The notes under the pieces are model-generated. The model did not search any database. It was not told where the DNA came from and saw nothing but the letters and a program-made list of their open reading frames with translations. Made by a program: the position numbers and the translations under genes. 64,000 nucleotides of DNA from Chitinolyticbacter meiyuanensis (GTDB lineage Bacteria > Pseudomonadota > Gammaproteobacteria > Burkholderiales > Chitinibacteraceae). Within the stretch, counting starts at the first letter, position 1, and the number at the start of each line of letters is the position of its first letter. Below, piece by piece: positions 624 to 38,558 of this stretch. The DNA is taken from contig NZ_CP041335.1 in NCBI RefSeq assembly GCF_008033135.1, forward strand, positions 1,367,925-1,431,924. The letters run 5' to 3'.

Positions 624-4249
<3,626 letters not shown>

Positions 4250-8225: not shown

Positions 8226-9173
8226 ATGACCCATACCATTCAAAACCTGCTGCCACGCGCCCTGACCGCCCTGACTCTGCTGCTGTCGCTGGCAGTGCCA
8301 CAGGCCCATGCTGCTGAGCGCCATTTCGCCACACCCGAGGAAGCAGTGGCCGCACTGCAAGCAGCACTGGAGCAGCATGACGAGAACGCACTGCTGGCAT
8401 TGTTCGGCGACGAGGCGCATACGCTGTTGGATTCCGGCGACGCTGTGGCTGATCAACAGGCGCGCGAGCGCTTCCTGACTGCGTTGAAGGCGGGGCAGAA
8501 GTTGAGCGAAACGGGGCCGGGCGCTCGCGTGCTGGAAGTGGGGGAGGACGGCTGGCCGTTCCCGATTCCGCTGAAGAACGCCTTCGGCACTTGGGCCTTC
8601 GATACTCCGGCTGGCGCTGAGGAGCTGATCAATCGCCGTATCGGTTTCAACGAGCTGTCGGCCATCCAGGTCAGCCTCGCGCTCGTTGATGCACAGCGCG
8701 AGTACTATCAGCGCAACCCGGACAATGCGAAGCTGCTGCACTACGCCCGTCGCATCGTCAGCAGCCCGGGCAAGCGGGATGGCCTTTATTGGTCGGACGC
8801 GGTGAAGGCGCCGGATGGGCAACCCAGCCCCTTGGGCGAGCTGGTGGCCGACGCGTTCCGCGAAGGCTATCGCAAGCGTGGCGAGGTGGCGACGCCGTAT
8901 CACGGCTACTACTATCGCTTGCTGACCCGCCAGGGCCCGGCAGCAGAGGGCGGCGCCTATGACTACGTCGCTAAGGGTTATCTGCTCGGTGGCTTCGCCG
9001 TGGTCGCCTGGCCGGCGGAATACGCGGTATCCGGGGTGAAGACCTTCATCGTCAACCACGAGGGCGTGGTGTACGAGCGTGACCTGGGCGAGCGTACGGC
9101 CGAGCTCGCACCTGCGCTGAATGCCTTCAATCCGGACGAAGGCTGGAGCCAGGCCGACGACACCTTGCATTGA
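8226..9173 (+). CDS. DUF2950-family secreted protein
   Basis: Signal peptide, then 'HFATPEEAVAALQAALEQHDENALLALFGDEA', a typical DUF2950 start. Follows the DUF3300 gene by 11 bp. Confidence 0.7.
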   Translation: MTHTIQNLLPRALTALTLLLSLAVPQAHAAERHFATPEEAVAALQAALEQHDENALLALFGDEAHTLLDSGDAVADQQARERFLTALKAGQKLSETGPGARVLEVGEDGWPFPIPLKNAFGTWAFDTPAGAEELINRRIGFNELSAIQVSLALVDAQREYYQRNPDNAKLLHYARRIVSSPGKRDGLYWSDAVKAPDGQPSPLGELVADAFREGYRKRGEVATPYHGYYYRLLTRQGPAAEGGAYDYVAKGYLLGGFAVVAWPAEYAVSGVKTFIVNHEGVVYERDLGERTAELAPALNAFNPDEGWSQADDTLH

Positions 9174-24730: not shown

Positions 24731-27700
24731 TTACTCCGTGGTGTCGGCCTTGGCCGGCTTTCTGGTGGCGCGATTGAGCGTCGCATCCATGGTCTTGATC
24801 TGTTCGCCGATCAGTTTGACCTTGTCCCAGATGTCATGGTCGAGTCGGATCTTGTGCTGCATGGCGCTGATCACGGGGATCAAGGCGTTTTCATAGGCAT
24901 GACCCAGCGCCTGCAGCACTGACAGCAGCTCCGGCTGTGGCGGCACGGTGATCTGCGGCTGGCTGTCGCGCAGCGCCTGCTCCAGCGCAACGAGCCCGTC
25001 GCGCCAAGTGCGGGCCAGCAGCTTGCTGCTGGTTTCGCCGGTGGCCAAGTGCTTTTCGATCTGGCCGATGGCGGCGGCGATCTGCTGGCCGCTGTCCTGG
25101 TTGGCGAGCCGCGCGCTGATGTCGCCGAGCGCGCTGACGATATGCGAGACCTGCTGCGCCAGCTTGGTGGCACCGTCGGCGTCCGAGCCGCCCATGCGCT
25201 TGTGGTGCAGGAAATCGCGCTTGATCTGCGCCCAGCGCTCGGCCTCTTGAGCGGTGAGGACGCCTTGCAGCTCGGCCAGCTTCAACAGGTTTTCCTCGGC
25301 GCCGTGGGTGAGTGTCTGTGCTTCGCCGAGGTAGTGATCGCGCACCATGGCGGCAAGCTCGGTCTCGTTCATGATGGCGGAGACCTTGATCGCCAGCTTG
25401 GCCATGTTGCGATAGCTGCCCTGCAGCTTGAATGGTGGCTCCACACGGTAGGCATCGGCTTGCGCCGCCGAGGCGATATAGGCGGCGTTCACCTTCATCA
25501 GCACTTCGCGCACGGCGAACAATTTTTGCAGCACCGCCACGATCTCGCCCGCTTCGGCCGCGCTGTAGCCGTGCTTGAAGTCGGTGAGCGGCACGGCGTC
25601 GCCGCTGGCCTGGCGCAGGAACAGCTGGATGTCGGCCGGATCGCGGTGTGACAGCGGCGCAAGCACCGGATTGGCGGTGAGGCTGTTCTCGATGTACGAC
25701 AGCGCGAACAGTGCTTCCTTGCCGGAGAGCACATCGCCCAGGTTGTAGATGTCGGCGCGGTTGGCCAGCATGTCTGGGATACGGAAGGCTTCGCCAGTCT
25801 CGGTATACGGGTTGCCGGCCATCACCACGCAGAAGCGTTTGCCGCGCAGATCATAGCTCTTGGCTTCACCTTTCCAGATGCCCTCAATGCGACGGGTGCC
25901 GTCACACAGCGCGATGAAACGCTGCAGGAATTCGGGCGAGGTGTGCTGGATGTCGTCGACGTACAGCATCACGTTGTTGCCCATTGCCAGGCCAAAGTTC
26001 AGCCGCTCCAGCTCTTGGCGCGCCGCGCTGCTGTCGGCCTGGGCCGGATCGAGCGAGGTGACCTTATGGCCGAGTGCCGGGCCGTTCACGCGTACGAACA
26101 CCAGACCCAGCCGGTTGGCCACGTACTCCATCAGCGTGGTCTTGCCGTAACCCGGTGGCGAAATCAGCAGCAAGAGGCCCATCAGGTCGCCACGCCGCGA
26201 TTCGCCAGCGGTGCCGATCTGCTTGGCGAGATTGTCGCCGATCAGCGAGAGGTAGACCTCGTCGATCAGCCGGTTGCGCACGAAGCCTGAGAGCGGCTTG
26301 GCCTGATATTGCTCCAGCCGTAGCGTCCGGCGGGTGCTGTCGACGATGTCCTGACGCAGCGCCTGCAGCGTGGTGAAGGCGGGTACCACGGTGGCGTCGT
26401 AATCGGTCAGCCGCGCGCGGAATTCGTTGAGATCGAGCGCGAGCCCGCCATTGACGACGCGCGGATGCGCGCCGACGAGGCCGTCCACGGTGCCGGTCAG
26501 CGCCACGCTGAGCCGGTTGCGCGGCAGCTCCGTCAGCAGCAGCGCCGCGGCTTCCGGTGCGTAGCCCACGGGCAGGCCGTGGCTGCTCGCCAGCGCTTCG
26601 CACCAGTGCAGCGCCAGCGCCCAGCGCTCATGCAGGCTGCCGGTCTGCAGCCCGTCGCGCAGCACGCCGATCACGCCGCGCCGCTCCAGCTCGGTTTGCA
26701 GTGTGGACACCAAGTGCTGGGCATCGCCGCTGGCGAGCCATTCGGCGCTGCCACTGGTCAACTCGGCAATCAGGTAGTCGACCAACTGCTCGCGCGTTGC
26801 CGGCTCGAGCGTGAAGCCTTCACGCGCGCAGAACGCGTCGAGCTGGCCGGCAAGGTTGTCCACCAGTGCCTGCAACGCCTTGCCTTCACCGAACTCGGCA
26901 CGGATGCGGTGCGCGTTGTCGGCACGGGTACGCCAGCCCGCCTTGTCGTTCTCCCAGATGCCATGCGCCCAGAACAGCGCGGCAAGGCCACGCGGTAGCG
27001 GGCCGAAACGCAGCAGCCCGGCTTCGCGATCCATCGGTAGCAAGGCGGCGAGCAGGGCGGCAGCGTCCACATCGTGTACGCCCTTCTGGTAGCCCTCGTG
27101 ATAGCGGGTTGCAGCGAAGTCACGCACCAGCGGCGTGAGCCCGGTGTCCGACAATCGCGCCGCTTCCAGCGCGGCGGCATCGAGCTCGCCCGCATGCATG
27201 GCGGCGAGCATGCGCCAGGCCAGGTATTCGGCGCGGTAGACCAGGTCGTTCTCCGACACCAGCTGCTGCGGCCAATAGGGCCGGAGTGCCAGCAGGCGTT
27301 CGTCGGCGAGCGGTTCGAAGTAGTCGGTGCCGGTCAGGTGCAGCGCCAGCGCATCGTCGCGATGCACCAGCGTCAGATCGAACGGTTGGGTGGTAACGGC
27401 AAAGGTGTGGCGACCCAGGCGGATGCCGTCGGCGCTGAACAGCTCGCCCTTGTCGCGCTGAATGCGCACCGCGTTGTCGCGCAGCGAGGTGAGCCGGCCT
27501 TCCAGCGTATCGGCTTGCACCGTGTCGTTCAGTCGGCGCAGATCGCCGATCAGGCCGCGCAGCTTGTGCACCATCGGATCGGCGGCGAAGTAGCTGTGCA
27601 GCTCCTCGGGCGAGCTGAAGCGCGAAAGCCGCTTCTCGATGCTCTCGACGATGCGGCGGGCGGCGGCGGCCAGCGATTGGGCGCGTTGCTGGCGGGCATC

Positions 27701-29992
27701 GAGCAGCGTCTGCCGCCGGCTGGCGAAAGCGTCGTAGACGGCATCGCGCTTGGCGACGATGTCGGCGAGGAAGGTGTCCTGACCGCCGAAGCGGGTTTCC
27801 AGCTCTTCCAGCTGGGTCAACAGCTGCGTGAGCGCTTCGTCGCAGCGTTCCGGGCTGTCGGCCAGGTCGAGTGCGTTGGCTACGCTCTGGCCGAACAGCT
27901 TGAACTGCGCGCCAAATTCGGCACTGGCCTCGCGTACTGCGAGCTGGTCGCGCTGGGCCCGGGCGCGGGCGCGCACCTGGTTGAGTCGGGCATAGACCTC
28001 GCCGATATCATCGAGGATGCGGGTGCGCACGGTGGCATCGCCGCTGTCCAGTCCGGCCAACAGCTCGGTCAGCAGGTCGAGACCGCTGGCGGTGCCGTCG
28101 AGCGCGGTCAGTTGCGGCGTCAGCGCGGCCACGGTCGGGATGCCCGGCAGGGCCGTGGCGATCGCATCAAGCTCGCCGTGGTAGCCGGCGAAGGCCTGTG
28201 GCGCGCCGAGAAAGCGCACCGTCTCGTCGGACAGCCGCTTCTGTTCGGCGGCAAGGCCAGCGTCGATGGCCTGCAGCCGTGCCGCATCGATATAGCGCTG
28301 CTCGGAGAGGCCCAGCAGCTCGCCGCGCACGGCGCGCAAGCGGGCCAGTGCATCGACGAACTGCTGCGGCGCCTTCCAGATGGTGGCGGCGATGTCGGTG
28401 AGCAGCGCCTTGTTCTGCGCTTCCATCTTTGCCAGCGCGGTATCGGCAGCGTGGCGGATGGCGGTGACCTTGTCGAACTCGTCGAGCGTCAGCCGCGCGG
28501 TGTCGGCGATGGTCTTGAGCGCGCCGCCGAGCTGGCCGGCTTCGGCCTCGTCCAGCCAGAAGTAGCCATCCTGCAGCCGGGTGATGGCGCGGATCAGGTC
28601 CTCGTAGTGCAGCCGGCTCGGGCTCTGTTCGCGCGTGGCGCGGGCGATGGCATAGAGCTCGGACAGTCCACGCACCAGCTCCGGATTGCCGATACGGCCG
28701 AAGAAGCCGGGTGGTGGCGCCTTGGCGGCGTATTCGTCGCTGCAGAATGGTGTGGTCCACAGCTGCATCGCGTGATTGCGTGTCGCTTCCTCGCCTTCGG
28801 CGTTGAACAGCAGCACGCGGCCATCGTCGAAGCGGGCGTAGCCGTTGCTGAACAGCGGTGAGGACAGTGCCTTGTCGATCAGGTTGTAGGCCAGCAGCGC
28901 ATAGCGGCCGGCCTCGGCATCGTGGAACACGTACAGCACATCCTCGCCATTGGGCGAGCGCAGCATGCGCTTGAACCGCAGGCCGGTGACATCCTCGGTG
29001 AAGGTCTTGTATTCGCCGCTCTGCAGGTAGCAGCCACCGGGAAAGACGATGCCGTGATCCTCGGGCAACTGCACGCAGGAATCGCCGATGCCATCGATGC
29101 GTGTCACCGCCTGGGTACGGGTGTTGAACACCAAGTAGCGATACGCCGTTTCGCGATAGGGCAGGATCTTGAGCAGGATCAGCGCGCCCAGTCGGGCGTA
29201 GCTGATCTCGGCGTCGGTCAGCGACTGGCTGGCATCGTCCACCGGCTCGCTGTAGATGCCACGGCCGACATCGGTGTTGTTCTCGACCTTGATCGTCAGG
29301 TCGCCGTTGATGGTTTCGACGAACAGCGCATCAAGGATGTTGATATGCGGATGCTTGCCGTTGACATGCTGCTCGCGGCCGGTGGCGATCCATTCGAAAT
29401 CGTGCGACGGCGGCGGTGCGATATCCCGCTCGCCCCGGTTGTCGATGTATTGGGTGACGGCCCCATCGCGCCCAAGCTGCCAGCGGAACACCCGCAGGTC
29501 GCTGGCGCGGGCGCCGATCTGGAACGCGGCGAGCAGCTTGTCGCCAGTGACACGCAGCTGGCGCAGGCTGGCGTGCTTGTAATAGGCGTAGAGCTCGCGG
29601 AAGTCGGCAGCGAAGCGTGGGTCATCGAGAAAGGTGCCAGCCGTGGCGACGGCTTCCAGCTCGACCGCATCGTCATTGCCGGCAAGCCGGTACAGGCTGA
29701 ACACATCGTCGACGCGCGTTTCCTGGCGCAGGCCGATATAGACGTTGTAACCGAACAGCAGCAGCTCTCCGACCCGCACGATGTCGCGCGCTACGCAATT
29801 GTTCTCGGTGCGGGCACGGGTGCGTGCCAGCAGGCGCAGGTCGGCCCGGCCGAAGGCGGCGAGCCGCGCCTCGTTCAGCGTGCCGGCTGCGCCCAGCAGT
29901 ACCTCACCCTGCTGGGACAGGCGCTGCTTCAGCAACTCGTAGCCGCCGCTGGCGGCGATGTCCTGGTCGATTTCCGGAAAGGTGCTCATCAA
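24731..29992 (-). CDS. giant (1753 aa) alpha-helical protein with a single MoxR/dynein-like AAA+ module; families of this kind are sometimes annotated 'DNA repair ATPase'
   Basis: Walker A 'LLLISPPGYGKTTLMEY' encoded near 26150-26180. 'CVVMAGNPYTE...RADIYNLGDV' sensor/Arg-finger-like region. Long coiled-coil-like regions on either side. Confidence 0.6.
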   Translation of the reverse strand: MMSTFPEIDQDIAASGGYELLKQRLSQQGEVLLGAAGTLNEARLAAFGRADLRLLARTRARTENNCVARDIVRVGELLLFGYNVYIGLRQETRVDDVFSLYRLAGNDDAVELEAVATAGTFLDDPRFAADFRELYAYYKHASLRQLRVTGDKLLAAFQIGARASDLRVFRWQLGRDGAVTQYIDNRGERDIAPPPSHDFEWIATGREQHVNGKHPHINILDALFVETINGDLTIKVENNTDVGRGIYSEPVDDASQSLTDAEISYARLGALILLKILPYRETAYRYLVFNTRTQAVTRIDGIGDSCVQLPEDHGIVFPGGCYLQSGEYKTFTEDVTGLRFKRMLRSPNGEDVLYVFHDAEAGRYALLAYNLIDKALSSPLFSNGYARFDDGRVLLFNAEGEEATRNHAMQLWTTPFCSDEYAAKAPPPGFFGRIGNPELVRGLSELYAIARATREQSPSRLHYEDLIRAITRLQDGYFWLDEAEAGQLGGALKTIADTARLTLDEFDKVTAIRHAADTALAKMEAQNKALLTDIAATIWKAPQQFVDALARLRAVRGELLGLSEQRYIDAARLQAIDAGLAAEQKRLSDETVRFLGAPQAFAGYHGELDAIATALPGIPTVAALTPQLTALDGTASGLDLLTELLAGLDSGDATVRTRILDDIGEVYARLNQVRARARAQRDQLAVREASAEFGAQFKLFGQSVANALDLADSPERCDEALTQLLTQLEELETRFGGQDTFLADIVAKRDAVYDAFASRRQTLLDARQQRAQSLAAAARRIVESIEKRLSRFSSPEELHSYFAADPMVHKLRGLIGDLRRLNDTVQADTLEGRLTSLRDNAVRIQRDKGELFSADGIRLGRHTFAVTTQPFDLTLVHRDDALALHLTGTDYFEPLADERLLALRPYWPQQLVSENDLVYRAEYLAWRMLAAMHAGELDAAALEAARLSDTGLTPLVRDFAATRYHEGYQKGVHDVDAAALLAALLPMDREAGLLRFGPLPRGLAALFWAHGIWENDKAGWRTRADNAHRIRAEFGEGKALQALVDNLAGQLDAFCAREGFTLEPATREQLVDYLIAELTSGSAEWLASGDAQHLVSTLQTELERRGVIGVLRDGLQTGSLHERWALALHWCEALASSHGLPVGYAPEAAALLLTELPRNRLSVALTGTVDGLVGAHPRVVNGGLALDLNEFRARLTDYDATVVPAFTTLQALRQDIVDSTRRTLRLEQYQAKPLSGFVRNRLIDEVYLSLIGDNLAKQIGTAGESRRGDLMGLLLLISPPGYGKTTLMEYVANRLGLVFVRVNGPALGHKVTSLDPAQADSSAARQELERLNFGLAMGNNVMLYVDDIQHTSPEFLQRFIALCDGTRRIEGIWKGEAKSYDLRGKRFCVVMAGNPYTETGEAFRIPDMLANRADIYNLGDVLSGKEALFALSYIENSLTANPVLAPLSHRDPADIQLFLRQASGDAVPLTDFKHGYSAAEAGEIVAVLQKLFAVREVLMKVNAAYIASAAQADAYRVEPPFKLQGSYRNMAKLAIKVSAIMNETELAAMVRDHYLGEAQTLTHGAEENLLKLAELQGVLTAQEAERWAQIKRDFLHHKRMGGSDADGATKLAQQVSHIVSALGDISARLANQDSGQQIAAAIGQIEKHLATGETSSKLLARTWRDGLVALEQALRDSQPQITVPPQPELLSVLQALGHAYENALIPVISAMQHKIRLDHDIWDKVKLIGEQIKTMDATLNRATRKPAKADTTE

Positions 29993-30033
29993 CGATGGCC
30001 TTGTAGACGGGGCAGGGTGGGCAGGTGGCTGGA

Positions 30034-30582
30034 TCAGCCCAGCGTGGAATCGCTTGCCTGCAGGTAGGCCAGCAGCACAGCGCGCAGCGGGTGGCCGGCC
30101 AGCCAGGCGCGCACGCGCTGCGCCTCGGCGTAGTCGGCCTCACCCAGTCGGGCGCGCCAGGTGGCATCGAGCCGTTCGCGCGATTCGGTTTCACGTACCT
30201 CGCGCTGGCCGCGATCGCTGAGGATATGCAGCAGCGAGTGCGTCAAACCCTGGGCGCGCAGCGCCGGCCATTCCTCGCCATCGAGCCAGACCTTGCGGCA
30301 GGCGCTGCAGCGATCGAGCCTGAACTTGAGGTGCCCGGCAACACGGTACTTCTGCAGCAGCTGTGCGCAGTCTGGGCAGCGCAGCGCGCGCGGCGAGGTC
30401 TCCTCCAGCAGCTCGGCAGTGGCCGCCAGCGCCTCGGTAGCCTGCTGCGGCGCTTGTGCCACCCAGCGGCGATAGTCGTCGAGCGCGAGCCAGGTGCCTT
30501 GGCAGGTGGGGCATTGCTCGGCCATCAGGCCGGGCTCCAGCGATTCACGGCGGGTTTCGGTGTTGCAGCTGAGGCAATACAT
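30034..30582 (-). CDS. double zinc-ribbon protein (YdjG-like)
   Basis: Two CxxC...CxxC ribbons ('CLSCN...CPTCQGTWL' and 'CPDC...CSACRKVWLD'). Start lies 9 bp after the upstream ORF stop. Confidence 0.6.
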   Translation of the reverse strand: MYCLSCNTETRRESLEPGLMAEQCPTCQGTWLALDDYRRWVAQAPQQATEALAATAELLEETSPRALRCPDCAQLLQKYRVAGHLKFRLDRCSACRKVWLDGEEWPALRAQGLTHSLLHILSDRGQREVRETESRERLDATWRARLGEADYAEAQRVRAWLAGHPLRAVLLAYLQASDSTLG

Positions 30583-30591
30583 GGGTATGTC

Positions 30592-30909
30592 CTACCAGTA
30601 GACGAAGAAGTAGAGCAACAAGGCAGTGGCATTGCCGAGCATGGTGTAGCGCAGCAGGCGTACTCGCCGAAACAGGCGCCGCTCCAGTTCCGGAATCCGG
30701 CTCCAATCGGGATTGCTATCGGCGAACTCGTTGACGAGGCTCATGCTTTTGGCGATACCGCAGGCGGGATCAAAGTCAGCAGGCGGTGCCTTGTCATCTG
30801 CACTGAGCAGGTCCGGGCAACGGTGCAGGATCACCCGGTAAGCGCGGTTGCACTGATCCGAGTACAGGGCGAACAGCAGGAACAGGAGCGTGAACAGGGC
30901 AAGACCCAC
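30592..30909 (-). CDS. small two-TM membrane protein (GTG start preferred)
   Basis: The track ORF runs 60 bp into the flotillin gene. A GTG at 30909 preceded by GGAGAAG gives a ~105-aa protein with N- and C-terminal TM helices. Confidence 0.4.
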   Translation of the reverse strand: MGLALFTLLFLLFALYSDQCNRAYRVILHRCPDLLSADDKAPPADFDPACGIAKSMSLVNEFADSNPDWSRIPELERRLFRRVRLLRYTMLGNATALLLYFFVYW

Positions 30910-30964
30910 GGCGCTTCTCCGGTGATACCTGAGGCGGGGCACGCCATGGGCGGCCCCGCGTTGC

Positions 30965-33037
30965 TTATTTGCGACCCAGCGAGCCGAGCAGCTTGCCGAG
31001 TGCCTCCTGTGTTTCCGCGTTGCCATCCTTCATCACCCGATGCAGCAGTGCGGCGGCGGACAGGTTCTGCAGCTCGTCGGCGGACTGGCCGAGGCCGCCG
31101 AGCAATTTGCCGGCGTCGTCGATCAGGTTGCGCTCGCCGGCGCGATGCGGTGCGGTGGCGAGCTGCAGCGTTTCGCTCTTGCCGATGGCGCCGTCGATGG
31201 CCTTGCCGATGCCCAGCGCATTGACGAAGCGCTGGAAGTAGTCGCCCTCGCCGCCGACGATGTCGATACGCGCGTTGCCCAGCGCCTTGCCCAGCACCTC
31301 GGCCTGTTCCCGGGCAATGCTGGTGTTGGCGTCGATGGCCTTGAGCGTCTGCACATGGGCGTTGTCGAGGCGCATGCGGAATTCCTCGTGGGCACGGGTG
31401 TCCTCGCTCATTGCCTTCATTGCTTCGAACTTCGAATGCAAGCCCTTGGCTTCGGCGGCGAACTTGGCTTCGATCGCGTGCGCGTCGGCCGTCTTGACCG
31501 TGACGTCGGCGAGGCCCAGCTTCTCGCGGCCCGACGCTTCGGCTTCCAGCTTGAGGCGCAGCGCCTCGGCCTCCGCTTCGCCCATGCGGCTGACCGCGTC
31601 GGCGTCGGCCATCTTCACCTTGGCGGCGATCATGCCGTCCTTCTCCTTGGCATCGGCCGTTACCAGCATCACCTTGGCGTCCGCCAGGCCCGGGGCGGCG
31701 GACAATGCCTCGACGCCCTCAGCTTCACGCTTCTTGGCCTCGGCCTCCTTCTCGGCGACCTTGAGCTTGGCGTCGGCCAGCGTGGTTTCCTCGACGGCCT
31801 TGTGCTTGGCGCGGCGCTCCTCGGCTTCGGCGGCCTTCACTTCCAGCACCAGCTTTTCCTCGGCCTTGGCTTCGGCCGCAATCACCGTGGCCTTGCGGGT
31901 GCGATCGGCCTCGGCGACCACGCGCAGCTCCTTGATCGCCTCTTCCTGCTCGGCCACCGTGCGTTCCACCACGATGCGCTCACGGATCACGTCGGCGATG
32001 GCCTTCTTCTCGATCTCGATCGCCTTGTCGGCCTCGATGCCCTGCAGTGCCACTTCGCGCTCGCGGTCGACCACTTCCAGGTCGCGGGCACGGGTGACCT
32101 TTTCCTCTTCGATGGCGACGGCGCGCTTGCGGTTGTTCTCCGCCACTTCCTTCTCGCGCTGCATGTTCTCCTGCTGCACGGCGATCAGCTGCTCGGCCTG
32201 GATGCGCGCAACCTCGGCCTTGGCGTGTTCCTCGGCGGAGACGCGGTCGGCCTCGGCCTGCTCGCGGGCCCGTACGCTGGCAATCTCGCGCTGCTGGCGC
32301 GCCTCGGCGTCGGCCTGCTGGCGCTGCAGCTCGAGGATGGTCTCGGCGGTTTCGACATCCTTCTTCTTGATCTGCATTTCCTCGTTGCGCTGCAGTTCAT
32401 TGGTGGTGACGTGCTGCACCGCGGTGAGCTCAGTGATCTTGCGGATGCCCTGCGCGTCAAGGATGTTGTTGCGGTCGAGCTTGTCCATCGGTGTCTGCTC
32501 GAGGTAATCGATGGCCGCGTCTTCCAGCACGTAGCCGGAGAGGTTGTCACCGATCTGGCGGATGATCTCGTCGCGGAACTTGTCGCGCGCCATGTAGAGA
32601 TCCTCGAAATCCATCGCCTTGCCGACGGTCTTCAGCGCCTCGGCGAACTTGGCGGCGAACAGCTCTTCCAGCGTGTCCTGGCTGGAGGCACGCTCACAAC
32701 CGACGGTCTGCGCCACGCGCAGCACATCCTCGGCTGTCTTGTTCACGTGGACGAAGAAGGTCACTTCGATGTCGGCGCGGATGTTGTCACGACAGATCAG
32801 GCCGGCGTTGCCCGAGCGCTTGATGACGATGGTCTTGAGCGAGATGTCCATCAGCTCCATCTTGTGGATCACCGGGTAGACCATGCGACCGGTGAAGGTG
32901 ACTTCCGGCTCGCTGCGCAGCGTGTTCACGATCATGCCGCGGCCCTGTTCGACCTTGTGATAGAACTTCACGAACAACAGGAATGCGCTGAAGACGAAGA
33001 AGGCGATGATGGCAATCGCCGTGATGATGGCGGTCAT
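30965..33037 (-). CDS. yqiK: flotillin-family (SPFH/band 7) protein, YqiK-like
   Basis: N-terminal TM, then SPFH domain ('MVYPVIHKMELMDISLKTIVIKR') and a long A/E/K-rich coiled-coil tail. Confidence 0.85.
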   Translation of the reverse strand: MTAIITAIAIIAFFVFSAFLLFVKFYHKVEQGRGMIVNTLRSEPEVTFTGRMVYPVIHKMELMDISLKTIVIKRSGNAGLICRDNIRADIEVTFFVHVNKTAEDVLRVAQTVGCERASSQDTLEELFAAKFAEALKTVGKAMDFEDLYMARDKFRDEIIRQIGDNLSGYVLEDAAIDYLEQTPMDKLDRNNILDAQGIRKITELTAVQHVTTNELQRNEEMQIKKKDVETAETILELQRQQADAEARQQREIASVRAREQAEADRVSAEEHAKAEVARIQAEQLIAVQQENMQREKEVAENNRKRAVAIEEEKVTRARDLEVVDREREVALQGIEADKAIEIEKKAIADVIRERIVVERTVAEQEEAIKELRVVAEADRTRKATVIAAEAKAEEKLVLEVKAAEAEERRAKHKAVEETTLADAKLKVAEKEAEAKKREAEGVEALSAAPGLADAKVMLVTADAKEKDGMIAAKVKMADADAVSRMGEAEAEALRLKLEAEASGREKLGLADVTVKTADAHAIEAKFAAEAKGLHSKFEAMKAMSEDTRAHEEFRMRLDNAHVQTLKAIDANTSIAREQAEVLGKALGNARIDIVGGEGDYFQRFVNALGIGKAIDGAIGKSETLQLATAPHRAGERNLIDDAGKLLGGLGQSADELQNLSAAALLHRVMKDGNAETQEALGKLLGSLGRK

Positions 33038-33118
33038 GGTTGCTCCCTGATGAGAAGGCGATACGTCGCTGCGGGCCCGCGCGGGGCGGGTCTGTTGTAC
33101 GGGGTTGAAATTGCGGGA

Positions 33119-33733
33119 TCAGCTGTCGTCGAGTGCGGCGATGGTGTAGCTGCCGCTGGCCGCGTCGTAGTCGACGATGACGGCGCGCGTACCGCGGGTG
33201 AGGGTGTTGGGGGTGCTGGCGCGGACCCGCAGGTTGATGCTGGCGCCGGCTCCTGCCACCTCGGCCTGGCCGAAGCGCTCGGTCACTTTCAGCGTCAGTA
33301 CCTTGCACGCGCTGCCGACCAGTGCCGGATTGCGGATGGCGTTGTGGCTGACGAACAAGCCGCGCATCGGCCGCAGCACGGCGGCGGTGACCGGCAGGGC
33401 CACCGCGAAGCTGAGCAGCAGCAATGCTGCGCCGGCCAGGTAGTGCAGCCAGCCGGGCAGCCAGCCCACCAGATATTGATCGGCAAGGCAGGACACCAGC
33501 CATCCGGTTAGCGTGATCAGGCTGATGACGATGGAGAACGGCACGCCGCCCAAGCCCAGCGCCATCAGCTTGCCGGAAAGGTCGCCAAAGTCGCCGGCTT
33601 CCCCATCGACATCGAGCGCATCGATATCGACGAAACCGACCATGGCCGCGATCCAGTACAGCAGCACCACACCTAGCAACACCGTCCAGATGGCGGTGGG
33701 GAAGCGGCTGATGGTGTCGAGGAAACTGCTCAT
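33119..33733 (-). CDS. yqiJ: NfeD-like / YqiJ-family (DUF1449) membrane protein with C-terminal OB-fold
   Basis: Multi-TM N-terminus and a soluble C-terminal beta-rich domain. Sits upstream of flotillin, as in E. coli yqiJK. Confidence 0.7.
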   Translation of the reverse strand: MSSFLDTISRFPTAIWTVLLGVVLLYWIAAMVGFVDIDALDVDGEAGDFGDLSGKLMALGLGGVPFSIVISLITLTGWLVSCLADQYLVGWLPGWLHYLAGAALLLLSFAVALPVTAAVLRPMRGLFVSHNAIRNPALVGSACKVLTLKVTERFGQAEVAGAGASINLRVRASTPNTLTRGTRAVIVDYDAASGSYTIAALDDS

Positions 33734-34320
33734 GGCGTGGCTCCTTCTATTTGCCCGGCGCGGATCAGCCGTGGCGTACCTAGGTGCGACAGATAGAGCG
33801 TGCCGCGCAGGCCGCGCTGCGCATCGATTACGTCAACTTGCCAGCCGCTGTACCAGACATGGCGCAACGTATCTGGCTGCAGCACGAAAGCCGGGCCGCC
33901 GATCTGCTCCGGCGTGGCGTAGAGCGCTACCTTGTTGTTGCGCCCGATGGCGATCACGGTGTGCGCATACACCTGCCGTTGCGGCACGGCAGCGACCATG
34001 CCGGTCGGCGCCCAGAACGTGGCCGGCAGTTGCGCCACCGGCACATCCGCGAGGCTGACGCCAGAAAACGTAGGGTGCGTGTCGTCGGCGCTACCGAGCG
34101 AATAGCTGGCGACTGTTCCGGATTGGGTACCCGCCGGTTGCTGCAGTCGCGGCCACTGGTTGTAGGCCACCAATGCCAGCAGACCGGTGATGCCAGTGAG
34201 CACAAGCAGCGTGCGAGCGCGACGGCGCAATACCGGCAATCGATGGAGCCAGTCGGTAAACCAGGCGCTGCCCATGGCCAAGCCGGGGGGCAGCATGTCG
34301 CGTGATTCGCGTTGAGTCAT
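33730..34320 (-). CDS. membrane-anchored periplasmic protein, hypothetical
   Basis: Single N-terminal TM 'LLVLTGITGLLALVAY', then a ~150-aa soluble domain. Stop overlaps the yqiJ start as ATGA. Confidence 0.45.
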   Translation of the reverse strand: MTQRESRDMLPPGLAMGSAWFTDWLHRLPVLRRRARTLLVLTGITGLLALVAYNQWPRLQQPAGTQSGTVASYSLGSADDTHPTFSGVSLADVPVAQLPATFWAPTGMVAAVPQRQVYAHTVIAIGRNNKVALYATPEQIGGPAFVLQPDTLRHVWYSGWQVDVIDAQRGLRGTLYLSHLGTPRLIRAGQIEGATP

Positions 34321-34344
34321 CGGTGGGCCTTCGGGTTGATGAGG

Positions 34345-34680
34345 TCAGGTGTGCGGTGCTTGTTGTCGGGCGAATACCAGCAGTTCGCCCTGCACCCGCT
34401 CCTTGATTTCCAGCCGTTGTTCCGGGGCGAGCCCGAAGCGCGCGGCGAGTGCGATGTAATCGTCGTCCGACAGCGTGACGGTGAGCCTGGGGCGCTTGGG
34501 GCGGCTGGTGACCGGCAGGTCGAGCACCTTGCGGATCTGGTCCGAGTTGCTGAGGTTGTGCTCGAAGGCGGCGCGGCGCACGGCCTGCATCACTTCCTCT
34601 TCCACGTCGAAGGCCACCTGCACCGCGCGGATGGCGGGCGCCGAGCTCTCCCAGCGCGGTGGCAGCCTTTTGTTGCTCAT
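34345..34680 (-). CDS. small protein with two tandem ribbon-helix-helix-like repeats, putative DNA-binding
   Basis: 'IRAVQVAFDVEEEVMQAVRRAAFEHNLSNSDQIRKVL' and 'RLTVTLSDDDYIALAARFGL' each fit a beta-strand plus helix RHH pattern. Overlaps the PspA stop by 4 bp. Confidence 0.4.
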   Translation of the reverse strand: MSNKRLPPRWESSAPAIRAVQVAFDVEEEVMQAVRRAAFEHNLSNSDQIRKVLDLPVTSRPKRPRLTVTLSDDDYIALAARFGLAPEQRLEIKERVQGELLVFARQQAPHT

Positions 34681-35390
34681 TCGGCTTGCTCGCCGTGGCC
34701 GGCTTCACGTCGCGCCTTGAGGCGGGCGAGCACGGCCTCCTTGCGGTTGGCGTTGTCACCGATGCCGGCCGCGGCCAGTTTCTGTTCCAGCGCCTTGTTG
34801 CCGAACTCGGCATCGAGCTCCTCGGCGGCCTTCATCCGGTCCGCCATCTGCGTATGCCGCTCCTTGATCCGTTCCAGTGATTCGCGGGCATTGCCGAGCT
34901 TGGAGGCGCCGCTGCCCATGCTTTGCGAGATCGATTCGGTGGCGCGGTAGACGCTTTCGGTGGTCTTGGCGACGGCGAGTTCGCGCTCGTGCTCGCGCAC
35001 CCGGGTCTCGGCCTGCCGGATCAGATCCTTCAGGTTGGCAATGTGGCCGGCGAATTCACGTTGTGCCTGCTGCTGGGCGGCGCGCTCTGCCTCCAGCTCG
35101 GCAATGCGGCTGGCAACATCGACGGCGAGGTTTTCCTCGGCCTTGTCGAGCGCGGCCAGCGCGTGTTCCTCAAAGCGGGCGATCTCCTTGTCGAGTCGCT
35201 CGATCTCGCGGCCGGCGGCTTTTTCCTGCGCCATGACCAGCGTCAGGTCCTGCTTGGCGCGCACCAGCGCGGCCTTCGATTCGTGGATTTCCTGCTCGTA
35301 GATGCGGGTGGCATTGGCGTCCACCACACTCTCGCCGATTTCGCGTGCGCTGCCCTTGAGGGCGGTCAGGATCTTGCTGAAGACGGACAT
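34677..35390 (-). CDS. PspA/IM30-family protein (YjfJ-like)
   Basis: 'MSVFSKILTALKGSAREIGESVVDANATRIYEQEIHESKAAL' aligns with the PspA N-terminus. Coiled coil throughout. Confidence 0.85.
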   Translation of the reverse strand: MSVFSKILTALKGSAREIGESVVDANATRIYEQEIHESKAALVRAKQDLTLVMAQEKAAGREIERLDKEIARFEEHALAALDKAEENLAVDVASRIAELEAERAAQQQAQREFAGHIANLKDLIRQAETRVREHERELAVAKTTESVYRATESISQSMGSGASKLGNARESLERIKERHTQMADRMKAAEELDAEFGNKALEQKLAAAGIGDNANRKEAVLARLKARREAGHGEQAE

Positions 35391-35407
35391 GTTGGGCTCC
35401 TAGTCGA

Positions 35408-35821
35408 TCAGTGCAGGTAGTCGGCCATGGCTTCGAGGGCATCGACTGCGTTGTCGCTCAGCGCCAGCAGATCCTGGGCGAGATCGTCGGCACCGGCATC
35501 GCGGGCCAGTGCGCCGTACAGCAGGTACTTGTCGCCGATGCGGCCGAACGAGGACAGTGGAATGGCCACATTGAGGTCGAGCATGGCTTCGAGCAGGGCG
35601 GTACGGCGGGCTGGGGCAATGTCGTGCTCGGTCCAAAGGTAACAGATGCACAACAGCTGGCTGTCAGCTTCCGTGATGAAGATCGGCAGCTCTTCCCGGC
35701 CGCTGACCGCGACCTTGTACACCACGACCTCGCCAGGAATGCGCTCGACGTCAAATGCGCCCAGCTGGCTGGCAAGTCGTTGTCCTGCCTCGGAAATGCG
35801 CTGTTGCAATGCGTGGTCCAT
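35408..35821 (-). CDS. DUF2170-family protein (YjfI-like)
   Basis: Start at 'MDHALQQRI' with a GAGGAG RBS. Paired with the PspA homolog, as in E. coli yjfIJ. Confidence 0.7.
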   Translation of the reverse strand: MDHALQQRISEAGQRLASQLGAFDVERIPGEVVVYKVAVSGREELPIFITEADSQLLCICYLWTEHDIAPARRTALLEAMLDLNVAIPLSSFGRIGDKYLLYGALARDAGADDLAQDLLALSDNAVDALEAMADYLH

Positions 35822-35847
35822 GGCGACTCCTCGTGATGGATGCATTC

Positions 35848-35890
35848 AACATAATCGGCTTGACATATGATGTCAAGACATTTTATGTCT
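35848..35890 (-). promoter_or_regulatory. sigma70-like promoter (TTGACA-17-TATGTT) for the yjfI/pspA-like operon, overlapped by two GACAT-N3-ATGTC palindromes
   Basis: Minus-strand -35 at 35876..35871, -10 at 35853..35848. Palindromes at 35859-35877 (CTTGACATatgATGTCAAG) and 35876-35890 (AGACATtttATGTCT). Confidence 0.55.
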
Positions 35891-36056
35891 TGGTGGTGCG
35901 TGAAACCCGACACGGTGACAGCCTGCGTAGACTGGCTTGCGCTAGGTTGATGTGTAAGTTTTTAAGAGAGTAGCTTGCGTCAGGCTGCGATGGTGCAGCC
36001 TGTCTTTCGGTCGATGCAAGCAGCGTGACGGAGACGGGTGTGGTTGCAACAGGCGG

Positions 36057-36830
36057 TCAACGGCGGCGCGAGCGGAAGTAGCTGTGATTCGCGTAAAAGC
36101 TGGCGTCTTGCTGCGGCCACCAGCCCGGGATGCCGAGGTAGGGCAGCGGCGGCAATTGGCGCGGTGTGGTCAGCCAGCCCGCGGAGAGGGATGTGCAAAC
36201 CTGGCTATCCAGCTGTGCCATGCGCGCAGCCAGCGGCAAGGCGAAGAAGGCAGGCTCGACCTGCACCGGCCAGCATTTGCCGGTGAGGCCGGTGAATGGC
36301 GCCAACAGGTTCTCGAAGGTGGCGTGGCCGAATACCAGTGCATCGATATGGCGACCCCAGTCGTCACGGCGGTCGACGAACAGTGTGGACCATTCATGCC
36401 CGACCAGCAGCTCCAGCAGGGCCGGATCGCTGTAGGGCACGATCAGCCCGCATTCGTCGAACAGCGTGGCGGCATCGCGCACCGGCCCACGCGGCCCTTG
36501 GCCGGTATCCGGCAGCAGTCGATAGTGCAACGCATTGAGCGCGGCCTTGCTGCGGGGGTAGCTGTGCCAGACCAGCGCGTTGAAGCAGTCGTGCCAATCA
36601 TCGCGCGTAGCAATGCGGCCCAGCTCGTAGATCTCCGCCTCGTAGTAACGACTGAGGCTGGATGGATCGACGCACTGCAGTGGCAGGCCGGACTGGGTGT
36701 GGACCGGTGGCAGGCGTTGCCAGTCGGCGAGCGCTGGCACGCGTGGCAGCTGCGCCGTGAGCGGCGCGAGCAAAGCAAAGGCCGGATGCGCCAGCGCATC
36801 CGGCCAGTGTTGCCCTGCGATTCCCGGCAT
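36057..36830 (-). CDS. DUF3025-family protein
   Basis: 257 aa. 'WHDCFNALVWHSYPRSKAALNALHY' conserved DUF3025 block. Confidence 0.65.
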   Translation of the reverse strand: MPGIAGQHWPDALAHPAFALLAPLTAQLPRVPALADWQRLPPVHTQSGLPLQCVDPSSLSRYYEAEIYELGRIATRDDWHDCFNALVWHSYPRSKAALNALHYRLLPDTGQGPRGPVRDAATLFDECGLIVPYSDPALLELLVGHEWSTLFVDRRDDWGRHIDALVFGHATFENLLAPFTGLTGKCWPVQVEPAFFALPLAARMAQLDSQVCTSLSAGWLTTPRQLPPLPYLGIPGWWPQQDASFYANHSYFRSRRR

Positions 36831-37307
36831 TTACAGCTTGCCGAGTTCCAGCCGGCCCTCGCCAAGTACCGGGGCGCCAGCGTTGGCGTCATCGAGCGCC
36901 TTTACGGTCAGGAAATAGGCCTTGCCCGGGGTGCAGGGCGGCAGGTAGTTGCCGTCGCCGCCTTGCGGGCCGGAAACCAGCGAAAAGCCACCGGGCAGCT
37001 TGCCCTGCGCCTGCACGCTGGGTACCTGCGCGCTGGCGACGCCCTTGTTCACCGCGAACAGCAGCTTGCCATTGCTGCCTCCGCCGCGCTCGTTGAATTC
37101 CAGCAGGATGGCACCGGTGCCGGGGGGCAGGTCGAACACATTGAGGGCCGGCGTCGAGCCTTGGCCGCCGAGCTTGGCGCATTGCTGGCCGGGTGGCACG
37201 GCCACGCCGTTCCAGGCCGGGTTGGCGAAGCGCACCGTCAGTCTGGGGCCGGCCAGGGCGGGCAGCGCGGTGAGGGCGAGCAGGGCACAGAGCAGAGGGC
37301 GTTTCAT
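36831..37307 (-). CDS. secreted hypothetical protein
   Basis: Signal peptide 'MKRPLLCALLALTALPALA'; Gly-rich beta-type body. Directly abuts the DUF3025 start. Confidence 0.45.
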   Translation of the reverse strand: MKRPLLCALLALTALPALAGPRLTVRFANPAWNGVAVPPGQQCAKLGGQGSTPALNVFDLPPGTGAILLEFNERGGGSNGKLLFAVNKGVASAQVPSVQAQGKLPGGFSLVSGPQGGDGNYLPPCTPGKAYFLTVKALDDANAGAPVLGEGRLELGKL

Positions 37308-37430
37308 GGTCCGTTCATTCCATATGACGACAGGGGCATACCCTTTACGCGAATTGTAACGGATATGCCCCTGCCGTAACGGTGATCGGGTCAACAGCGT
37401 TGACGACTCACCGTGTGAAAACGCACGCGA

Positions 37431-37931
37431 TCAGGAGAGCGCGGCGAGCGCGGTGCCGTAATTCGGCTCGTTCTTGATCTCGGCGACAAGTTCGCTGTGC
37501 AGCACCTTGTCGTTCTCGTCGAGCACCACCACGGCACGAGCAGCCACGCCGGTGAGCGGACCCGAGGCGATATCGACGCCGTAATCGTTCAGAAACTGGC
37601 GACCGCGCATGGTCGACAGCGTCACCACGTTGGCGAGGCCTTCCGCGCCGCAGAAGCGGTTCTGGGCGAACGGCAGGTCGGCCGAGATGCACAGCACCAC
37701 GGTGTTGCTGAGCTGGCTGGCGGCTTCGTTGAAGCGGCGCACCGAGGTGGCGCAGGTGGGGGTGTCGATGCTCGGGAAAATATTCAGTACCTTGCGCTTG
37801 CCAGCAAAGCTGGCAAGGGTGACATCGGCGAGGTCCTTGCCGACCAGGGCGAAGGGTTTGCCGGTGTCGCCGGCCTTGGGGAACTGGCCATTGACCGTGA
37901 CGGCGTTGCCGCCGAGGGTGACTTCAGACAT
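37431..37931 (-). CDS. tpx: thiol peroxidase
   Basis: '[12 protein letters not shown]' peroxidatic cysteine and the resolving Cys in 'NRFCGAEG'. Confidence 0.9.
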
Positions 37932-38021
37932 CGTTTTCTCCAGTGGGCTTGAAACGGGGGTGAACAAAAGGCCCTGCCTCCAGATGGGGGCAAGGCCCAT
38001 GATGACAAGCGGGAATGACGA

Positions 38022-38558
38022 TCAGGCTTCGGTCTCTTCCTCGACCACCGGTTCGGGTGGGAACAGCGCCTGCAGCATCAGGTCGTAAAGCGGTTCGCTG
38101 TTGATGTCCGCAACCAGTTCCGCATAGCGCACGTTGTCGTCGGTATCGAGCGCGATCAGCGCGGTGGCCATCAGTCCGGACAGCGGCACGTCGGTGATCA
38201 TCACGCCGTAGTCCTTGTGGAAATCCCGGCCACGCAGCGTGGAGAGCAGCTGCAGCCGGTGCAACCCTTCCTGTTGCGCCACGCGCGCCAATGCATACGG
38301 CGTATCGACCGACACCACCAGCACCACGGTGTTGTCGAGCTGTGCTGCGACGGCATCAAGCCGCTTGGCGATGGCAAGGCCGATCGCGGCATCGATGCTG
38401 GGCACCACCGCGATCACCTTGCGTCGGCCCCAGAACTTGGAAAGCGGTACGTCCTGCAGTTGCATGTCGACCAGCATGAAGCTGTGCGCGGTTTCGCCGA
38501 CATGCGGGAAACGACCGCCGACGCTGATCGGGGTACCGTTGAGCATCACGGTGGCCAT
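38022..38558 (-). CDS. Tpx-like paralog lacking both catalytic cysteines
   Basis: Colinear with Tpx, but 'VVPSIDAAIGLA' replaces '[10 protein letters not shown]' and 'ARVAQQEG' replaces 'NRFCGAEG'. Start ATG at 38558 inside the longer track ORF. Confidence 0.65.
   Translation of the reverse strand: MATVMLNGTPISVGGRFPHVGETAHSFMLVDMQLQDVPLSKFWGRRKVIAVVPSIDAAIGLAIAKRLDAVAAQLDNTVVLVVSVDTPYALARVAQQEGLHRLQLLSTLRGRDFHKDYGVMITDVPLSGLMATALIALDTDDNVRYAELVADINSEPLYDLMLQALFPPEPVVEEETEA

Follow-up and report, generated by a model that had tools for sequence, protein, structure and literature searches.

MetJ and omega (pSM19035) are homodimers of chains that each carry a single ribbon-helix-helix (RHH) unit, and they bind cooperatively along 8-bp met boxes and 7-bp heptads, respectively, with MetJ requiring S-adenosylmethionine (AdoMet) as corepressor. 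Known proteins with two RHH units in a single chain are TraY of the F plasmid, AvtR of the lipothrixvirus AFV6 and the engineered single-chain Arc. Among membrane-stress systems, the classical psp operon combines PspA with PspF and a sigma-54 promoter, and a sigma-54 promoter has also been proposed in print for the bacABCDEF operon of Pseudomonas aeruginosa. BacA exerts negative control on the bac operon (PMC10948618). A class of clusters joining a CesT/Tir (DUF2170) protein and PspA with a band-7/flotillin protein, a novel AAA+ ATPase and a YqiJ/YuaF-type protein has been described computationally by Ravi et al. 2024 (PMC11237479), and that paper also mentions some spermine-synthase-type operons that end in a gene for an RHH transcription factor. 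Here we analyse a 64,000-nucleotide stretch of Chitinolyticbacter meiyuanensis (contig NZ_CP041335.1, positions 1,367,925 to 1,431,924 of the forward strand; hereafter the window, from whose first letter all positions are counted), which carries a counterpart of the bac operon in the same gene order (PMC10948618), as a cluster of eight genes, all on the minus strand. Judged from the sequence, positions 35848-35892 are most likely the sigma-70 promoter of this membrane-stress cluster with two palindromic operators overlaid on it, and the probable repressor is the 111-aa product of the third gene, which NCBI labels a hypothetical protein (WP_148714818.1).

As in the classical psp system, a PspA/IM30 protein is among the regulated genes; unlike that system, this cluster has no sigma-54 promoter and no PspF. 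In the literature we found no description of an operator, a promoter or a role of the 111-aa family in the flotillin/AAA+ class. The sections of Ravi et al. 2024 (PMC11237479) drawn on mention no RHH gene in that class and describe no operator or promoter, and the RHH gene that they do report is the last of its operon, whereas it is internal (third or fourth) in the loci described below. The elements found upstream of the first gene, which encodes the DUF2170 protein, are as follows.

35876-35871, minus strand: -35 hexamer TTGACA (sigma-70 scan)
35853-35848, minus strand: -10 hexamer TATGTT, with a 17-nt spacer to the -35 hexamer (sigma-70 scan)
35832-35827, minus strand: ribosome-binding site GAGGAG, 5 nt before the DUF2170 ATG (direct sequence reading)
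35859-35877: putative proximal operator O1, CTTGACATatgATGTCAAG, a perfect 8-3-8 palindrome with core GACAT-N3-ATGTC at 35862-35874
35874-35892: putative distal operator O2, CAAGACATtttATGTCTTG, a perfect 8-3-8 palindrome with core GACAT-N3-ATGTC at 35877-35889

The minus-strand intergenic sequence upstream of the DUF2170 gene reads ...CAAGACATAAAATGTCTTGACATCATATGTCAAGCCGATTATGTTGAATGCATCCATCACGAGGAGTCGCCATG. TTGACA-17-TATGTT, with 10 of 12 matches, is the single sigma-70-like site in 29000-38500; it lies ahead of the first gene, its spacing falls within the 16-18 nt that characterise such promoters, and 26 nt separate its -10 hexamer from the ATG (35821-35819). Counted from the predicted transcription start near 35841, O1 covers the -35 hexamer and the first 9 spacer nucleotides (about -33 to -21) and O2 lies at about -48 to -36. 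The pair amounts to four half-sites of 5 bp that alternate in orientation over about -48 to -21, the steps between their centres being 8, 7 and 8 bp. The window contains two exact copies of GACATNNNATGTC, both at O1/O2, against none in 100 dinucleotide shuffles, and a relaxed search of the window with 1 or 2 mismatches found no further noteworthy site. The coincidence of palindromes and promoter is confirmed to be far beyond chance, and we are all but certain that the promoter and operator are real. An earlier note on this DNA, made from the sequence, had described the same promoter and two palindromes, and most of its description holds: the TTGACA-17-TATGTT promoter, the perfect 8-3-8 palindrome over the -35 element and the GACAT/ATGTC core shared by both palindromes are all present. 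It had put the start codon one base off (the ATG begins at 35821, and the frame from 35822 has stops), and it had taken for a 6-3-6 palindrome at 35876-35890 what is the core of the larger O2. The 14 bp that it placed between the palindromes must be corrected, as O1 and O2 share 4 nt and the distance from centre to centre (35868 to 35883) is 15 bp. We rejected a sigma-54 promoter, since at up to 3 mismatches TGGCAC-N5-TTGCW matches 336 times where 339 are expected, and both of its matches within the intergenic region (35822-36056) lack the GG of the -24 GG / -12 GC pattern of classical Psp promoters.

Conservation of the motif was followed in 80 genome loci (12-kb loci, 860 kb) from Beta- and Gammaproteobacteria, which were retrieved through the 111-aa protein, itself a member of a group of more than 1100 close relatives, and 76 of which include upstream sequence. 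The motif lies upstream of DUF2170 in 74 of the 76, as an exact copy in 66 and as the 15-bp pair in 45; the two remaining loci are one with an N-masked stretch and one without a site, whose upstream part is about 180 nt and close to a contig start. Every one of the 100 exact copies found in the 860 kb falls within 200 nt upstream of DUF2170, with none elsewhere against 0.3 expected from composition. When 68 unique promoters were anchored on the proximal site, with one mismatch allowed, nine of the ten positions of the O1 core were invariant and the tenth was kept in 66 of 68. Positions outside the anchor were also conserved, namely the TT before GACAT that completes TTGACA (66/68) and a T at +7 (62/68), so that the -35 TTGACA is kept in 66-68 of these promoters, and a -10 of the form TAnnnT recurs at the fixed 17-nt spacing (T in 57, A in 59 and T in 63 of 68). 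The consensus is gacAtaaaAtgtcTTGACAT.tTATGTCg...c.ccTA...T, with zero information in the flanks. The distal site is conserved in the same alignment, and it is missing or displaced in loci of the Comamonadaceae and Sphaerotilaceae type. Across the 80 loci and the reverse search described below, the sites are symmetric, in register with the promoter and specific to this locus, and the pattern of sequence conservation reads as the classical phylogenetic footprint of a promoter with operators. The earlier note had named absence of the motif upstream of orthologous clusters as an outcome that would speak against it; the outcome is the opposite, as the motif is kept upstream of orthologous DUF2170 genes and the flanks are not conserved.

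Loci of Oceanimonas, Zobellella and Oceanisphaera (L032, L058, L060, L064, L072 and L074) carry a reduced three-gene cluster of DUF2170, a 207-aa PspA-like protein and the RHH gene, with no flotillin or ATPase genes. Here one degenerate site, GACTTATTATGTC, lies about 20-27 nt before the DUF2170 start, abutting the ribosome-binding site and downstream of a TAGTCT-like -10.

In the reverse direction, we searched metagenomes with the double operator GACATN3ATGTCTTGACATN3ATGTC, which returned 79 contigs. A DUF2170 gene follows 19-166 nt downstream on the right strand in 67 of these, and each of the 30 contigs with at least 2.6 kb of downstream sequence contains a homologue of the 111-aa protein. 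Many of the contigs, from low-GC marine bacteria, show a second architecture, DUF2170-PspA-DUF4178-like-RHH, followed by K+ channel, DUF350 or spermidine synthase genes. Where the cluster is of the spermidine-synthase type, the palindromes have moved into the spacer of the promoter (L164, 4119-4160; L170, 4152-4164; L172, 3945-3990; L173, 3122-3165), a second palindrome copy is found 29-31 bp downstream and not 15 bp upstream, and the DUF2170 promoter is internal to a longer gene row with AdoMet decarboxylase, DUF350 and spermine synthase genes upstream. Some homologues are natural fusions (P0339, P0343 and P0351, of 450-506 aa; also P0337 and P0346) in which an N-terminal DUF4178-like domain, similar to the gene just ahead of the RHH gene in clusters of the second type, is joined by a long Pro/Ala/Lys/Glu-rich linker to a C-terminal tandem-RHH module.

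Operators were also seen in other surroundings. On contig L115, an RHH gene (62-376) heads a set of lipoprotein and DUF350-like membrane genes, and the double operator lies at 3250-3277, about 3.2 kb downstream of it and ahead of a YqiJ-like gene; the operator is therefore not strictly tied to DUF2170. Perfect double operators with a TATAAT-like -10 stand before genes for RDD-family membrane proteins on the low-GC contigs L097 (7207-7234) and L147 (3666-3693), and operators precede unrelated or unidentified genes on L096 (1842-1915, three sites), L100 and L107. None of these five contigs has a DUF2170 or RHH gene within the sequence at hand, and their operators may mark further regulon members.

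Related clusters that lack the 111-aa protein provide the complementary comparison. The E. coli cluster yjfIJKLMC, which has DUF2170 and PspA, contains no RHH gene and has no motif at up to 2 mismatches upstream of yjfI. Using the BacA sequence of PDB 8q8o, we retrieved three bacA-type clusters, from P. aeruginosa, Thauera and Lysobacter, which share the window's order DUF2170-PspA-YqiJ-like-flotillin-DUF3686. Unlike the window, they contain no RHH gene in a hidden Markov model search. GACAT-N3-ATGTC is absent from two of them, and in the third, Lysobacter, the two 1-mismatch matches to it belong to another palindrome. All three instead bear the different palindrome TCACATGTGA, and in their promoters two T(C/T)ACATGTGA palindromes lie around a TTGCAG-like -35, at the following positions.

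8890-9010 of the P. aeruginosa locus (L161): bacA-type palindromes
8900-9010 of the Thauera butanivorans locus (L162): bacA-type palindromes
8940-9010 of the Lysobacter firmicutimachus locus (L163): bacA-type palindromes

In these clusters the -10 (TAGTGT, TAGAGT or TAATGT) lies just 7 nt before the annotated ATG, which suggests that bacA mRNA is leaderless. BacA, 206 aa at full length, further differs in a conserved, basic N-terminal extension of about 60 aa (SSAHYQRxxRxRLRExGLVKKEVWILPE) that is not in the 146-aa chain of PDB 8q8o and to which sequence family searches, including NCBIfam, assigned no fold. This extension may be a fused DNA-binding module, which, if it binds DNA, would explain the reported derepression of bac in a bacA mutant. 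As the motif is present in the RHH-bearing clusters and not in those of the E. coli and bacA type, it tracks the 111-aa gene, the only gene whose presence does so, and not DUF2170, PspA, flotillin or the ATPase.

We consider it probable, from sequence and predicted structure, that the cluster encodes a tandem-RHH autorepressor that would bind the operators and occlude the sigma-70 promoter, and likely enough that the 111-aa protein is the binder and repressor. One polypeptide would form an asymmetric RHH pseudo-dimer reading one half-site, a stoichiometry in which our confidence is low, and two (or four) copies would bind cooperatively along the operator. Their binding would occlude the -35 element and thereby repress the operon that encodes them. 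Autoregulation of this negative kind is proposed because the 111-aa gene lies inside the operon, and repression is preferred over activation because the promoter is near consensus, because the universal site sits on the -35 element and because the sites of the second cluster type occupy the spacer or positions past the -10. As to the inducing signal, a guess of low confidence is that under membrane stress a partner from the cluster, for example PspA or the chaperone-like DUF2170 protein, titrates the repressor; a coupling between such a partner and the DNA-binding module is a speculation prompted by the natural RHH/DUF4178-like fusions and by the basic N-terminal extension of BacA.

The 111-aa open reading frame (ORF) is present at 34345-34680 on the minus strand, where the earlier note had placed it. 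AlphaFold model 2 (predicted local distance difference test score 89.1) predicts an extended segment at 19-27, helices at 28-40 and 45-52, a second extended segment at 53-71 and helices at 72-82 and 89-107, and thus contains the order that characterises an RHH unit, an N-terminal strand and then two helices within about 45 residues. Model 1, built from a shallow alignment, makes residues 14-40 one helix; its structural matches include TraY, single-chain Arc and AvtR, all two-RHH chains, aligned over 61-66 residues. UniRef names some homologues 'Ribbon-helix-helix protein CopG domain-containing'. Invariant residues fall on the two putative strands, A19, Q21, A23, F24 and D25 on the first and K62-R63-P64-R65-L66-T67-V68 on the second, and the second strand, KRPRLTVTLS, presumably resembles the CopG strand KRLTITLS in the motif (K)R-L-T-V/I-T-L-S. 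On these predictions an RHH fold is likely and a single-chain pseudo-dimer plausible.

A profile search across 1.8 billion representatives, yielding just 177 clusters, brought up divergent members of the family. These RHH homologues sit in the second cluster type behind variant operators in the same frame, GTCAT-N3-ATGAC, GGCAT-N3-ATGCC and GCCAT-N3-ATGGC, which differ in the second base of the half-site; each variant palindrome is the sole one of its kind in its locus and lies in or beside the spacer of the DUF2170 promoter. The residues at the predicted DNA-facing strand positions compare with the half-sites as follows.

Window and most loci (P0001): residues 19, 21, 23 are A Q A; residues 65, 67, 69 are R T T; half-site GACAT
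L166 (P0317): residues 19, 21, 23 are K Q H; residues 65, 67, 69 are R S S; half-site GACAT
L173 (P0335): residues 19, 21, 23 are K Q H; residues 65, 67, 69 are R G S; half-site GACAT
L164 (P0334): residues 19, 21, 23 are K Q H; residues 65, 67, 69 are R S H; half-site GTCAT
L170 (P0321): residues 19, 21, 23 are K Q N; residues 65, 67, 69 are R G S; half-site GGCAT
L172 (P0307): residues 19, 21, 23 are K Q H; residues 65, 67, 69 are R A N; half-site GCCAT

The variant operators thus coincide with an unusual residue at one of these positions (H69, N23 or A67/N69). Four further homologues were taken into this comparison, of which P0312 lies on a contig without the promoter and P0342, P0355 and P0326 lie on contigs that are too short or without the cluster.

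Several results weigh against a tandem-RHH repressor, and some of them lend themselves to a different account, in which the palindromes are operators for another regulator (encoded elsewhere, or the DUF2170 or Zn-ribbon protein) and the 111-aa protein is a structural or adaptor partner of PspA or DUF2170. Neither the whole 111-aa protein nor its halves match any Pfam family at E values up to 10; profile searches of the same sequences against the PDB gave nothing significant, the sole match of the N-terminal half being Arc (pArc) at E=1.8, and the best NCBIfam match, the aCcr1 RHH family at E=0.11, is below significance. The two halves show no similarity in hhalign (probability 0.4%), so that an internal duplication is not seen, and DSSP finds no strand, and so no paired beta-ribbon, in either monomer model. 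Within the reach of computation, both parts of the earlier note's reading are nevertheless supported, the promoter with operators by the conserved motif and the 111-aa protein as candidate regulator by the co-occurrence of motif and gene; its tandem RHH stands as two predicted strand-helix-helix units, with the lack of a significant family match, of half-to-half similarity and of a ribbon in the monomer models as caveats. With about 60-70% identity across two classes, the protein is also as conserved as the structural genes, unusually so for a simple local repressor, and might for this reason have another, structural role; it occurs fused to the DUF4178-like domain. A recognition code pairing Gly67 with GGCAT, predicted from L170, was rejected, since L173 has R-G-S yet GACAT, and for this reason the residue-to-base covariation is anecdotal and suggestive only. 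In the Aeromonadales the RHH gene persists beside DUF2170 and PspA in the three-gene cluster, but with just one degenerate site, and six double-operator contigs (about twelve with short ones) show neither RHH nor DUF2170 in the sequence at hand. Against another regulator, however, stands the presence of DUF2170 and PspA in the E. coli and bacA-type clusters, which lack the motif. A Zn-ribbon protein as binder was rejected, as its gene is missing from the second cluster type and from many operator-bearing loci; tblastn gives no match to it in about half of the operator-bearing loci. A global regulator is disfavoured because neither the 860 kb of the related loci nor the window has a site outside the DUF2170 promoter. 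In addition, the structural searches point to RHH DNA-binding proteins, and the operator changes where the RHH protein diverges. Taken together, we regard binding by another regulator as unlikely and retain the 111-aa protein as the candidate repressor.

The nature of the regulation and of the palindromes themselves could also be read differently. An activator, or a regulator with both roles, activating at O2 and repressing at O1, would fit the O2 centre, which at about 42 bp upstream of the predicted start is in a class II position; some RHH proteins can activate, and many stress operons are activator-dependent, as the classical psp operon is on PspF. However, the -35 is a perfect TTGACA, the spacer measures 17 nt and the -10 is usable, all of it conserved across 68 promoters; a promoter so built should need no activator, and the universal site O1 covers -33 to -21, where a bound protein blocks RNA polymerase. 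Moreover, the second cluster type has its palindrome inside the spacer or downstream of the -10, and O2 is dispensable in many lineages, which leaves activation, to our judgement, very unlikely. Least probable of all, with hardly any weight in our estimate, is that the palindromes act as RNA or DNA hairpins, either terminating the upstream DUF3025 gene or folding within a transcript that reads through. A terminator scan does flag 35859-35877 on the plus strand, the predicted folding of the region is slightly more stable than that of shuffled sequence (z = -2.1), and the symmetric changes in the variant operators would also keep a hairpin. But there is no gene on the plus strand to terminate, the upstream gene is non-syntenic in other loci while the motif is always in register with the DUF2170 promoter, and the stem bases are invariant, not covarying, across the 68 sequences. 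The stems are AT-rich and 5-8 bp long in a GC-rich genome, and the predicted transcription start is downstream of both sites. The terminator reading was rejected on synteny and invariant stems, and with no Rfam match we also rejected a leader RNA of known type, such as a riboswitch.

A tandem-RHH autorepressor of this design would recall MetJ and omega, which bind direct or inverted repeats, in its short repeats 7-8 bp apart over a promoter. It would differ from them in that one chain appears to carry both RHH units, in the half-site GACAT and in the lack of sequence similarity. With the CopG/Arc-type autorepressors of plasmids and toxin-antitoxin systems it would share a small RHH protein encoded in its own operon and a palindromic operator overlapping the -35/-10 region; here, unlike there, the setting is a chromosomal membrane-stress cluster and not a mobile element, the gene is the third and not the first, and the architecture is tandem. 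A small RHH protein shutting off its own sigma-70 promoter through palindromic operators is a textbook kind of switch, and the conceptual surprise is limited. PspA/IM30-flotillin-AAA+ clusters headed by DUF2170 are nevertheless widespread in Proteobacteria and, through the bac operon, tied to biofilm formation and virulence in P. aeruginosa, and the analysis supplies a precise conserved promoter-operator, a named candidate repressor and natural operator variants. How these common but little-understood PspA systems are regulated thereby becomes directly testable.

A bolder extension, which we hold to be doubtful, is that the 111-aa protein founds a compact family of single-chain tandem-RHH repressors (the 177 clusters, grouped at 50% identity, for which Pfam has no model) and is the missing switch of YjfI/YjfJ-type PspA systems, its activity being controlled by partner switching with the DUF2170 or the DUF4178-like protein. 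If this were true, the negative control by BacA would be direct DNA binding at the TCACATGTGA operators of the bac operon, and the second position of the operator would make GACAT, GTCAT, GGCAT and GCCAT a natural specificity series for an asymmetric RHH ribbon.

The eight genes behind the promoter, in order of transcription, are as follows.

35408-35821, minus strand: DUF2170/YjfI-like protein, 137 aa, CesT/Tir-like chaperone fold, first gene (Pfam PF09938, E=1.1e-24)
34677-35390, minus strand: PspA/IM30 family protein (YjfJ-like), 237 aa (Pfam PF04012, E=1.1e-35)
34345-34680, minus strand: 111-aa candidate repressor with two predicted strand-helix-helix units (residues about 19-52 and 63-107)
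33730-34320, minus strand: 196-aa ORF, orphan (0 tblastn matches in the 80 related loci; no Pfam match)
33119-33733, minus strand: 204-aa membrane protein, YqiJ/YuaF-type counterpart (synteny and class description, PMC11237479)
30965-33037, minus strand: 690-aa band-7/flotillin-like coiled-coil membrane protein (synteny and class description, PMC11237479)
30034-30582, minus strand: 182-aa double zinc-ribbon protein (PF13453, E=8.6e-11)
24731-29992, minus strand: 1753-aa DUF3686/DUF7902 AAA+ ATPase, last gene (Pfam)

This gene order is kept in about 60 loci and is that of the CesT/Tir(DUF2170)-PspA-band-7/flotillin-AAA+ class. The DUF2170 protein has a solved relative in BacA (PDB 8q8o). The ATG of the 111-aa gene overlaps the PspA stop codon (ATGA), and by this sequence arrangement the gene would be translationally coupled to PspA. 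The 690-aa flotillin-like and 204-aa YqiJ-like proteins gave no match in Pfam or NCBIfam at E values up to 10, and both are highly conserved between loci. For the 196-aa ORF, an exact-sequence look-up, with no homologue search run, returned only a C. meiyuanensis hypothetical protein and one Logan copy, and C. albus has just a 335-bp gap at the same position; the ORF is either a lineage-specific insertion or orphan gene, or a spurious ORF in GC-rich DNA. Between the flotillin-like and Zn-ribbon genes, the otherwise tightly packed cluster has a gap of 382 nt (30583-30964). Upstream of the cluster, the DUF3025 gene occupies 36057-36830 on the minus strand, and about 60 nt past its stop a GC-rich hairpin, CAGGCTGC-loop-GCAGCCTG, lies at 35975-35998; it has no clear U-tract on the minus strand and may be a terminator that insulates the DUF2170 promoter.

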